Source: Amphiscolops sp. MND2022
Lineage: Eukaryota
Direction of reading: 5' to 3'
Length of the DNA stretch: 64,000 nt
Assembly (NCBI GenBank): GCA_964187785.1
Contig: OZ076409.1
Coordinates: 10,418,001 to 10,482,000 of the forward strand
Part shown: one piece after another, positions 13,701-16,700 of the stretch
How positions within the stretch are numbered: the stretch's first letter is position 1
Layout of the letters: each line of letters starts with the position of its first letter
Position numbers and translations under genes: made by a program
Notes under the pieces: model-generated
Databases searched by the model: none
Told to the model about the DNA's origin: nothing
What the model saw: only the letters and a program-made list of their open reading frames with translations

Positions 13701-16700
13701 CTTTACTGCTCGAGGCCACAACCCATCGCAAGTCCTCCGAAAGTGATATGTGATTTATCTGGACAACAAAAAATCTCAATTCTGTATGCTGATGCAAACG
13801 AGACAATAATCATCAGCGTTCGCAAATCATCTAAATCTGTAGTTTTTCCACTGAAAGCAACTAAAAAAATGATCAATTATCTTGCAGCGTAAAAGTTCTG
13901 CGTAAAATTTACTTATTCAGCGTAAAATTCGGGGAACCTTTTCAGAATAAGTTCTTCTCTAAACCTCGAGGAATGGGAAGTTCCTCAGTAACACCCAAAC
14001 TGAATGAATACTTTTTTTCGAAATACCCTTTCTAGACGGGATCCTAGGCAGATGTCTCCCACATACACGGTTAACATTTAGTATTTCTATTTGATTCAAT
14101 TGAATGTGCCGTGCCGCCTTTTATTAATGTATTTTTCTACCGATTCTTAATTCATTGTTTTCTTCAAAAATTATTTTGCAGCGTATCGACACCGTCCGCA
14201 CCTTTTTACTGACAAACCCCTTTTTACCATGAGCCATCACTTTCATATTGTCTTATCGATGCGCGCGGTTCTATAATATCAATTTTCTCGAAACTCCACT
14301 GATGAAGAAAAACTGGGTGTTTCGAAAAGCGAGTGCAGTGGCTCCCCGATATAAGAAACTCGCTTGTAAGAAATACCCGCTTATAGTCACTGCATACCTT
14401 GGCCCCGACTGGCAATTTCATTCCTTTTAAAACCCGGATATAAGAAAGTTCGATAATGAGAAACACCAATAGCGTTCCCCTGACGTTGATTATATCCGGG
14501 ATCCTCTGTAGTGACAAATTAACAGTCAAACCTTTGCAATGGTTTCTCCCCGCTTCAGGGAGTAGAGATGGTGTACCGCGCAGTACGACGAACTCCAGGG
14601 ATGCGAGTGGATTTTGAAGACGTTGAACACGTGTCCATACTCGCCGGCAGTGGCCATAATGGCTCTATTGGTCAATTGCAAGGCCACTACTGCCTCGTTG
14701 AGGTGAGCCACGAAATGGGCCACTATCTCCTCGAACGTGCCATTGGGGTCGCTGGTTCCAACCGTCACGTGCTTACAAGACTCTGTCGGTCCTGGCACCC
14801 GCAAGATATCCACCACAGTGACTACTCCTGGGACCACCGGTGTTCAATATTTTATTCGATTATAATTACTGCCTGAATATGAATTTTTATTTCCAAGGCG
14901 GAAAAATTTTTTTCCGCTAAAATTATCATTTTTATTCTCAGCGAAAAATGGATATCAACAAAAACTTGAATTATGCTCCGAACATCACAAACAGACCAAT
15001 ATTTTTTGTTAGCCATTAAAAAAATTTGCGACTAAAAGTTCATTGAGCTGAGATTTTGGAGGTGATCTATCATGACACGTTTAGCTTTTCTAAAAAGTTG
15101 TTGCACATGTGTTAAAATAAACGCTCTTAGTTTTAGTTATTCCAAGAATAATTATTTTTGTTTCAACCTGTCCAAATATTATTACTTTATTCATTTGAGT
15201 GTAAAAACAAATTTTATTTTATTTGTTATAATTATTCTTACCCATAATTATATATTGAACACGCATGCCTGGGACACAACCATTGGTGCTGCTGTTGTTG
15301 CGAGAGTGATTAATGTGGAAGGTGGTTGAGGGGGTTCGGTTGCTGGATCCCCCCGCATGGGGCGCAGATACATGGGAGGGTGGTGCCCCACCGCCATTGA
15401 CGCCGGAGGGGATGTGGTAAGAATGAGGACTGGAGCTAAGACTACTAGGAGAGGCACTCTCGGATCGGTCGACTGGACTGAGCGATGGCTGCTGTAACTG
15501 GCTGCTGTTAGATGAAGACCCAACAGTGTACTGTGTCAGCAGGTTCAAACCAACGTTCAGACCCTAAAACACCACCAGCCACTCCCTATTGGGGACTCTA
15601 AAAGCGGAAAATGGGTTGCTAGGTGACACTAACATAAGAAGCACTTTTGACAATCGTTGATGCATAGGAGTTTTTATACTCTGCGGTGACTCCTCCGCCC
15701 GATTGCAGTCTTGGAGTGAGCTGAAATAACAGATTGATAATAATGACTAAATTTATCTATTGAATACTACAAACAAAACAACGAACAACTTACAATACAC
15801 AAATTCAGCAGAAGAGCTTAGCATTGGTCGATTGAGCTTAGTAAATTACAAATTGTAATATAAAAATACGACAGCCGCCTGAAGCGATAGACAGCACAAC
15901 TTCCACAAGACATCCACAGGTTTTTTACGGTACTGAACATCTGAGAAAACTTTGAGAATATTTGGCATATCTGAAGTTGTCATGATTTGTTTCAATATAA
16001 TTTAAAATCGATATATTTATAAGATTAACCAGAACCGCATGTGCGGTGAAGTAGTCGGAAACGATTAAAATATTGAAAAACAATTACGTACTTTGTCGCA
16101 GGATTCTCTTCAGGATTTATGGACTTATTTTGACTATGTTTCTCAGATGCCATTTTGATGCCATTGCACACATAGGACCCTAATACGCTGTAGAATAACT
16201 GAAAAATTCCGTTCGAATCGTATAGTTTTTGAGAAATTTGAAACTTTCATTGAAAGGTCGGGAGAAAAAAGGTAAAATTGCATAAGTAGAAAATTTTGCA
16301 TAATTAGTCGAAATTTTTTTTCAAACTTCTAAAAATTTAACACTAACACTGCGATCCACGTATGCTAGCCATACATCAGCCACTGAGACGGGGTTGACCA
16401 CGTTAGGGTAACATGCTGAAAAACAAGTTGAACATTTCAAACTTCTCACAATGATAACTTGCGAAACGGCAAGACCTCAAAAATTCTGTTTGAATTCAGA
16501 ACTTCATAAAATACCACTAAAAATAAATTCCATTAAGTGCTACTAACAGGTGATGGAGAATTTGTGTTCCAGGGTAGCATTGTCGAAAACTGCCAATCGG
16601 TCATTAAAAGTCACAACGACAATTCTGAAAAGTTCACATTTGTATGGCGGGACATGGACAAAGGGAATATTGGGATATAAATTTGGCAAAAGTACCTTGA

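Follow-up and report, generated by a model that had tools for sequence, protein, structure and literature searches.

The 64,000-nt stretch of contig OZ076409.1 analysed here (positions 10,418,001–10,482,000 of assembly GCA_964187785.1, Amphiscolops sp. MND2022; hereafter the window) carries on its minus strand the gene BCAS3, in which conserved coding sequence is interrupted by a 433-bp transposable element. The locus raises the question of how the reading frame of the gene is kept across such an insertion, and whether the element itself serves as an intron. The element is a copy of a hAT-like family of miniature inverted-repeat transposable elements (MITEs), with terminal inverted repeats (TIRs) and an 8-bp target-site duplication (TSD). 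This copy inserted into a BCAS3 exon, and we infer that it is probably spliced out of the transcript as an intron, both the splicing and the donor being read from the genomic sequence.

Structure of the insertion in BCAS3

On the minus strand, which is the gene strand, the locus is ordered as upstream coding sequence, GTCCCAGG, the AT-rich element, a second GTCCCAGG and downstream coding sequence. The direct repeat is perfect at all eight positions (8/8) and occupies 15268–15275 and 14827–14834, with a spacing of 441 nt as given by the repeat finder. The non-coding element lies at 14835–15267 and ends in CAG...CTG; its orientation on the gene strand is termed A. Its 16-nt termini, CATGCGTGTTCAATAT at the gene-strand 5′ end (15252–15267) and ...ATATTGAACACCGGTG at the gene-strand 3′ end (14835–14850), pair at 13 of 16 positions, and the repeat finder places an inner 17 nt at 88%. 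No more than this single copy of the family is present in the window. The TIR element with a perfect 8-bp TSD inside conserved coding sequence, described in the original prediction, is thus found in place.

The upstream coding exon (15268–15563, minus strand) encodes a low-complexity linker that ends in ...N-G-C-V-P-G, its frame reading ...S-T-N-G-C-V-P towards the element, and its last 8 bases are the first TSD copy. The putative 5′ boundary of this exon, at 15563, is placed by a ttttag that stands just before it. Downstream of the element, the frame starts with V-P-G-V-V-T-V-V-D and remains open for 101 codons up to an AAG|GT donor at 14529–14528. The corresponding exon (14530–14827, minus strand) matches positions 258–350 of the Pfam profile BCAS3_WD40. 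The next BCAS3 exon lies in an intact open reading frame at 13519–13809 (minus strand), residues 17–84 of which match positions 350–417 of the same profile; the exon itself covers about 13519–13761. Read-through from the upstream exon into the element meets a first in-frame stop at 15219–15221, 15 codons past the Gly (open frame 15219–15563), and the predicted block to read-through by in-frame stops is borne out.

The reading frame of BCAS3 across the site

Both flanks of the element belong to BCAS3, and the profile matches of the downstream and following exons are consecutive. A tblastn search with three full-length relatives finds open exons on the minus strand from about 18650 down to about 7660, and the frames of the first two exons after the element have been preserved. 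Among the entries of the protein libraries, P0003 is the closest relative, a protein of 197 amino acids that is 65–69% identical to the window exons, its N-terminal part matching the upstream exon. The single open frame of P0003, NLLSQYT through GETVAKV, corresponds to the two window exons joined end to end and reads ...A-C-V-P-G-I-V-T-V-V-D... without a break.

A comparison with further relatives gives the same picture more widely. At the protein level, the motif G-[IVL]-[IV]-[TS]-[IV] is contiguous in 39 of 39 BCAS3 relatives that align as far as the beginning of the downstream exon. The two coding segments in the window are separated by the element and one duplicate alone, and removal of these 441 nt would restore V-P-G-V-V-T-V-V-D, as had been claimed, the motif being contiguous in all 39 relatives examined. 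At the level of sequence, the site is accordingly uninterrupted in relatives, as is expected of an intron gained in the lineage of the window gene.

BCAS3 is single-copy, and a search of the species' own assembly revealed no second BCAS3 copy, retrocopy or empty-site allele. A protein search with the downstream exon for a same-species protein spanning the junction returned P0003 alone among the longer proteins and none at similar length. The flanking exons are intact, while the element has drifted by 53 substitutions and 8 gap openings, which suggests that the element is removed from the transcript; a gene that had been dead since the time of insertion would be hard to reconcile with such exons. 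A share of the divergence of the element may predate its insertion.

A hAT-like MITE family

The family was searched for in the species' own assembly (1.07 Gb in 1929 contigs). With the element as query, 933 first-look candidates were obtained, and the 40 of them that were scored are all 75–82% identical over most of their length. For the 14-nt terminus, 966 exact occurrences were counted in the genome, and 7 for its reversed control. An alignment of 18 full-length copies shows common ends, which on the plus strand of the window are CAGGGGTGTTCAATATT ... TTGAACACGCCTG. Directly outside these ends the copies bear their own, differing 8-bp direct repeats; for the majority of intact copies, the two repeats agree at 7 or all 8 of their positions. 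A real repeat family, copy-specific duplications and 966 termini against 7 make the structure at BCAS3 more than chance. The many similar copies with TIRs and TSDs give the family the transposon hallmark by which introners, transposon families that create introns, are recognised.

The ends of the family consensus are CAGGG... and CAGGC..., with the general form CAGG(G/C)GTGTTCAA... Elements of the hAT superfamily carry a terminal motif of the (C/T)A(A/G)NG type within short TIRs. The 8-bp TSD and the CAGNG ends fit a hAT-like, non-autonomous MITE, and the hAT-like nature originally proposed for the BCAS3 element extends to the family.

Age of the insertion

The window copy is 87.7% identical at aligned bases (377/430) to the consensus of the other 17 copies in the alignment, which themselves range from 86.4 to 93.0%. 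With gaps counted, its identity is 82.8%, with 53 substitutions and 8 gap openings, and its drift from the consensus is about 12.3%. The nearest relative of the window copy, among the 40 scored of the 933 candidates, is about 81–82% identical to it, and copies of the family at large are about 71–90% identical to one consensus. The insertion had been taken to be recent; the identity to the consensus, the gap openings and a nearest copy at about 81% among the 40 scored all speak against this, and on these measures the insertion is old. The perfect TSD does not date it, because one duplicate is coding and the other carries the putative acceptor, so that both are constrained.

The original prediction had further held that three TIR mismatches supply the G at donor position +5. 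At the gene-strand 5′ end the window reads CATGCG and the family consensus starts CAGGCG; the one change, at element position 3, alters donor position +4 alone (G to T). The G at +5 and the C at +6 are ancestral, and G at +5 is the family consensus at both ends. At the gene-strand 3′ end, the window reads ...CACCGGTG and the family ...CACCCCTG, with two changes by which pyrimidines were lost just upstream of the proposed acceptor. The mismatch at TIR position 5 (G versus C) already separates the two ends of the family consensus. The TIR mismatches are no adaptation to splicing, and this part of the claim falls.

Proposed splice sites and mechanism

In the mechanism proposed here, an old copy of the hAT-like MITE with an 8-bp TSD inserted straight into a BCAS3 coding exon and would have been tolerated there thanks to its excision from the transcript by the spliceosome. 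The acceptor would be the AG at positions 6–7 of the second duplicate (14829–14828), with the second exon starting at 14827. The donor would be found where the first duplicate meets the TIR, or slightly further in. The most economical choice is CAG|GCATGC, with the upstream exon ending at 15269 and the G at 15268 as the first base of the intron. The outcome would be a scarless GC–AG intron of 441 nt (14828–15268, minus strand), which comprises the final base of the first TSD copy, the element and all but the final base of the second copy. GC...AG is the sole register with canonical-type dinucleotides that removes exactly the element and one duplicate. Measured against the donor consensus, the window donor matches at –3 to –1 (CAG), at +3 (A) and at +5 (G), and mismatches at +4 (T) and +6 (C). 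Whether precisely this scarless junction is used at the BCAS3 locus is, on the sequence, close to an even call; of the remaining weight, the larger part goes to one of the GT donors described next and the rest to mixtures or other outcomes.

Two GT donors lie within the element. The weak TGC|GTGTTC (15261–15262, minus strand), 6 nt into the intron, keeps the frame, and its use would add Met-Arg; as part of the TIR, it is present in every copy. This is the alternative that the original prediction named, and it holds. A stronger one was overlooked there, ATGG|GTAAGA (15240–15241, minus strand), which is 27 nt inside, in frame and stop-free, would add 9 residues, and is conserved in the family in orientation A.

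The near-symmetrical ends of the element have a further consequence. In either orientation, the 5′ context is N-A-G|G-C-A-G-G-(G/C)-G-T-G-T-T-C and the 3′ context is ...G-A-A-C-A-C-(G/C)-C-C-T-G-N-N-N-N-N-A-G|G. Wherever an exonic insertion has a duplication that is NNNNNAGG in the coding sense, it would therefore be removable whichever way the element is turned, and such ends, together with such a duplication, would account for the presence of family copies in the place of entire introns in a number of conserved genes that are unrelated to one another. Folding of the RNA offers no additional cue, as the whole intron is no more stable than its shuffles (z = –0.37) and only the TIR stem forms.

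Insertions in other genes

Exact termini preceded by AGG occur at 79 places, of which 50 were read; one further locus, L016, was found separately among the best-scoring copies. The 50 loci include 32 that fall into five groups with shared duplications, either amplified composites or duplications (AATGTAGG, 17 loci; CCTTCAGG, 8; CCTGAAGG, 3; CGTGGAGG and TGTACAGG, 2 each), and 17 unique intact insertions are left after these are collapsed. A junction was called open where, with the element and one duplicate removed, at least 40 stop-free codons on each side share one frame on the strand that reads AGG. Open junctions are present in 8 of the 17 unique AGG insertions, against a background of 13.4% among 566 pseudo-junctions built from the flanks of non-positive loci (binomial P = 8e-4).

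Five of the exon-embedded copies outside BCAS3 lie in genes with recognised domains, a kind of evidence that says more than open frames do. At L038, the two flanks match positions 12–103 and 106–147 of the Pfam CREPT profile, with a split codon between them, in a CREPT-type (RPRD1-type) gene. L068 divides BBS5, with flanks that match positions 66–132 and 133–172 of the BBS5 profile, and L064 lies in WDR24; the nearest Atlas clusters of this WDR24 fragment give a lead towards an arthropod host. L070 lies in a gene for a C2HC zinc finger (zf-C2HC) with 235 open codons upstream, and L016 splits a spectrin-repeat gene, in which the open stretch before the element measures 128 codons and the one after it 496; the duplication of L016 is GATGAAGG / AATGAAGG, and its orientation is opposite to that of the window copy. 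L039, L065 and the eight-member L033 group show open frames and no recognised domain, and searches of PDB sequences with the flanks of L065 and L039 and with the upstream flank of WDR24 gave nothing significant.

Nine exon-embedded copies are thus available for comparison, three in orientation A (window, L039 and L064) and six in orientation B. AGG is kept in the second duplicate in 9/9 of them, against 4/9 of the unique non-exonic AGG copies. The suspicion of an intron-generating family is hence supported, and the genome search advised for whole-intron copies with AG-containing duplications turns up at least five other conserved genes (CREPT/RPRD1-type, BBS5, WDR24, zf-C2HC and spectrin-repeat) split with the same ...AG|G geometry. 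By the open frames and domain matches, copies appear to coincide with whole introns in several unrelated genes.

A wider and more tentative reading, which we hold at somewhat less than even, is that the family is an orientation-independent introner, in which CAGG ends and an AGG-ending duplication together make scarless GC–AG introns. Such a family would have given rise to dozens of introns across conserved housekeeping genes, BCAS3, BBS5, WDR24 and RPRD1-type genes among them, all too old to be seen in surveys that look for near-identical introns.

The frequency of AGG before the terminus (79/966, 8.2% versus 1.6% if uniform) was considered as a target preference and rejected, the excess being largely due to amplified composites. 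The pairs L036/L016 and L079/L038 were considered as duplicates and likewise set aside; in each pair the duplication sequence is common and the flanks are not. Taken over all final bases of the duplication, AG stands at duplication positions 6–7 before 149 of the 966 termini (79 AGG and 70 AGA, AGC or AGT, with AGT the most frequent of the three), that is 15% versus 6% if uniform, an excess that may reflect target preference or more composite repeats.

The shared-duplication groups have features of their own. The AATGTAGG group (17 of the 50 loci: L034, L035, L044, L046, L047, L049, L057, L059, L060, L063, L072, L073, L075–L078 and L081) is spread over several chromosomes; those copies for which both ends were found are deletion derivatives of about 270–316 bp, seemingly embedded in a larger repeat that was amplified later. 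In the CCTTCAGG group (L033, L045, L048, L054, L055, L071, L074 and L080), the same copy interrupts an open frame (63 + 106 codons) that matches no Pfam profile; the host is either a gene in several copies or a second mobile element that multiplied while carrying the MITE, possibly as an intron. The BBS5 exon and its MITE occur twice on contig C5, as L068 and L069, about 173 kb apart and 97.5% identical over 2.9 kb, which points to a segmental or assembly duplicate. At L043, which shares its duplication CGTGGAGG with L062, a short MITE derivative directly follows a 111-codon frame with a zf-BED match (Pfam, E = 4e-5). Fingers of this type characterise hAT transposases as well as ZBED genes, but this frame has no bearing on an autonomous partner of the family. 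L061, with duplication CAGACAGG / CGGACAGG, follows a 381-codon frame without a Pfam match and is followed by 12 open codons; its element measures 1470 bp, probably with a nested insertion.

Alternative explanations

A number of observations weigh against the interpretation of the BCAS3 element, and of its family, as scarless introns. The donor CAG|GCATGC is a mediocre one, a GC donor of middling strength as its sequence goes, and the far better G|GTAAGA follows 27 nt further on, where in the window copy it keeps the frame and no stop intervenes; the 9 residues that it would add would land at the end of a variable linker. On the acceptor side, the TIR has lost two pyrimidines, and a TTCAG/GCAG pair is present 40–44 nt upstream of the proposed acceptor. 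In the family at large, only 1 of 29 other best-scoring copies, sampled without selection for AGG, lies clearly within a host exon, and many copies sit in other repeats. Most copies are ordinary MITE insertions, and the family shows no specialisation for genes and lacks the concentration in genes that is characteristic of introners. The evidence from open junctions has its own weaknesses: the pseudo-junction background is high in DNA rich in transposable elements (37% in the window itself), the difference between AGG insertions (8/17) and non-AGG insertions (2/10) with open frames of at least 40 codons is not significant alone (Fisher P = 0.16), and 3 of the 9 exon-embedded cases (L039, L065 and the L033 group) are supported by open frames and no domain match.

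The alternative closest to our reading is that the element is spliced to the same AG acceptor from one of its own GT donors, with M-R-V-Q-Y-I-I-M-G (+27) or M-R (+6) added after V-P-G. This is possible, though on the whole unlikely, and in the window copy taken by itself the sequence makes the +27 site a serious competitor. Both GT donors are in frame and stop-free there, GGTAAGA is close to the donor consensus and conserved in the family consensus, and the +6 site, as part of the TIR, is available in both orientations. The extra residues might also be tolerated, as the insertion follows a long variable linker and many relatives share only x-G-[IV]-[IV]-T, so that residues could be added before the Gly. 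As a general mechanism, however, the +27 donor fails: it is restricted to orientation A (3/9 exon-embedded copies) and absent from orientation B, it is destroyed by mutation in L039, and in the WDR24 copy it stands behind an in-frame TAA, so that the donor there must be at the boundary between duplication and TIR. The usual donor consensus has A at +4 and G at +5, both of which GTGTTC lacks. Two exon-embedded copies, that of the window and L016, came to light independently of any AGG search; in each of them the duplication ends in G, and only the GC reading needs that G. At the CREPT and BBS5 junctions, the domain profiles run without inserted residues in relatives, although an insertion in the species itself could still occur.

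The other explanations do without a newly gained intron. If the insertion had broken BCAS3, the element would be retained and the product would be a pseudogene or a truncated protein, as the stop reached 15 codons into the element would permit; this is very unlikely for a single-copy gene whose downstream exons have stayed open, with consecutive BCAS3_WD40 matches, while the element gathered 53 substitutions and 8 gap openings, and the same geometry recurs with intact frames in BBS5, WDR24 and CREPT-type genes. More improbable still is a recent or polymorphic insertion, or an assembly artefact, confined to the sequenced haplotype and in no need of splicing. The perfect (8/8) duplication is what such an event would leave, but no copy is closer than 82% among the 40 scored, the window copy is among the more diverged members of the alignment, and the retention of AGG in the second duplicate of every exon-embedded copy would have no place in this explanation. 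The least probable possibility is that the MITE colonised a BCAS3 intron that already existed, with no intron gained. MITEs often land in introns, and most copies of the family lie outside exons; against this, the coding segments are parted by nothing but the element and its duplication, the conserved motif comes back residue for residue on scarless removal, and P0003 is unbroken at the site. Splicing of an exonic MITE insertion is left as the probable account of the locus.

Comparison with known introners

The removal of a transposable element from an exon by splicing has a precedent in maize, where, as Wessler and colleagues reportedly described in the late 1980s, Ds and dSpm are spliced from transcripts. 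Those cases resemble the BCAS3 element in that a hAT-type non-autonomous element in an exon is removed through sites at or near its ends, with residual gene function. The maize alleles are said to be young mutants with imperfect splicing and several products, whereas the BCAS3 element is old, apparently fixed and accompanied by several parallel cases.

Closer parallels are found among introners. Gozashti et al. 2022 (PMC9860276) describe families for which the duplication is the source of one splice site or of both: a Symbiodinium family with a 4-bp TSD and TIRs carries its 3′ site and co-opts the 5′ site, a Florenciella family co-opts both, and an Aureococcus family adds 12 nt. The BCAS3 element would resemble them in that the duplication provides splice dinucleotides, so that the element and one duplicate are removed, and in some of those families a small number of additional codons stays behind in frame, which is also what the +6 and +27 donors would bring about here. 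The length of the duplication and the superfamily differ, and the copepod metagenome-assembled genomes listed in the supplementary tables of that report, which belong to the small number of animal hosts, have families of the GT type, unlike the GC donor proposed for BCAS3. The introners of the same report are strongly concentrated in genes (0.95 for a Eurytemora-like metagenome-assembled genome), whereas the family of the BCAS3 element is not.

The most similar elements are the hAT introners of Gozashti et al. 2025 (PMC12130899). A look for arthropod group names in Dataset S2 of that report found none, a weak negative in view of its naming scheme. Dataset S2 lists Panicum virgatum fam14, a 157-bp hAT MITE with a 16-bp TIR and an 8-bp TSD classed as 'co-opt both', Styela clava fam1, a hAT family with an 8-bp TSD, and Trifolium repens fam4, a hAT family with GC donors in 6/7 and AG in 7/7. 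Such introners share with the BCAS3 element a non-autonomous TIR structure, an 8-bp duplication, copies that coincide with whole introns, and splice sites that are, or here would be, drawn from the duplication and the element boundary; GC donors, as proposed for the BCAS3 element, are recorded there for some hAT families. Those families consist of near-identical introns in annotated genomes, some of them checked by RNA-seq, whereas copies of the BCAS3 element are old (about 71–90% identical to the consensus) and mostly outside genes, and their intron status is read from sequence alone. The mechanism is already in print; what is new is the MITE family and its host.

Other features of the window

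The remainder of the window contains long open frames of 226–523 codons at 23611–25822 (minus strand), 25823–26803 (minus strand) and 29035–30375 (plus strand). Two of them show YADD/FADD-like reverse transcriptase motifs when the list of open reading frames is inspected by eye, and are probably LINE-type retroelements near BCAS3. At 26–850 (plus strand), consecutive frames repeat a near-identical 60-residue translation, which suggests a tandem repeat of about 183 bp.

Significance

New introns are now considered to arise mainly through transposons. For animals, the two reports name very few groups: two, which are also the only ones among animals and land plants taken together (PMC9860276), with a sea urchin and a tunicate added later (PMC12130899). 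What is known of the function of BCAS3 is unchanged by the present finding. If splicing is confirmed, the family would provide an animal example that extends over several genes, and one in which the rule for tolerance can be read directly, namely an 8-bp duplication ending in AG|G beside a CAGG terminus. It would also constitute a natural test of weak GC donors against strong internal GT donors. Finally, confirmed splicing would mean that MITE families of an ordinary, non-specialised kind can mark a genome with a series of fixed introns that outlast by far the period in which the families were active.

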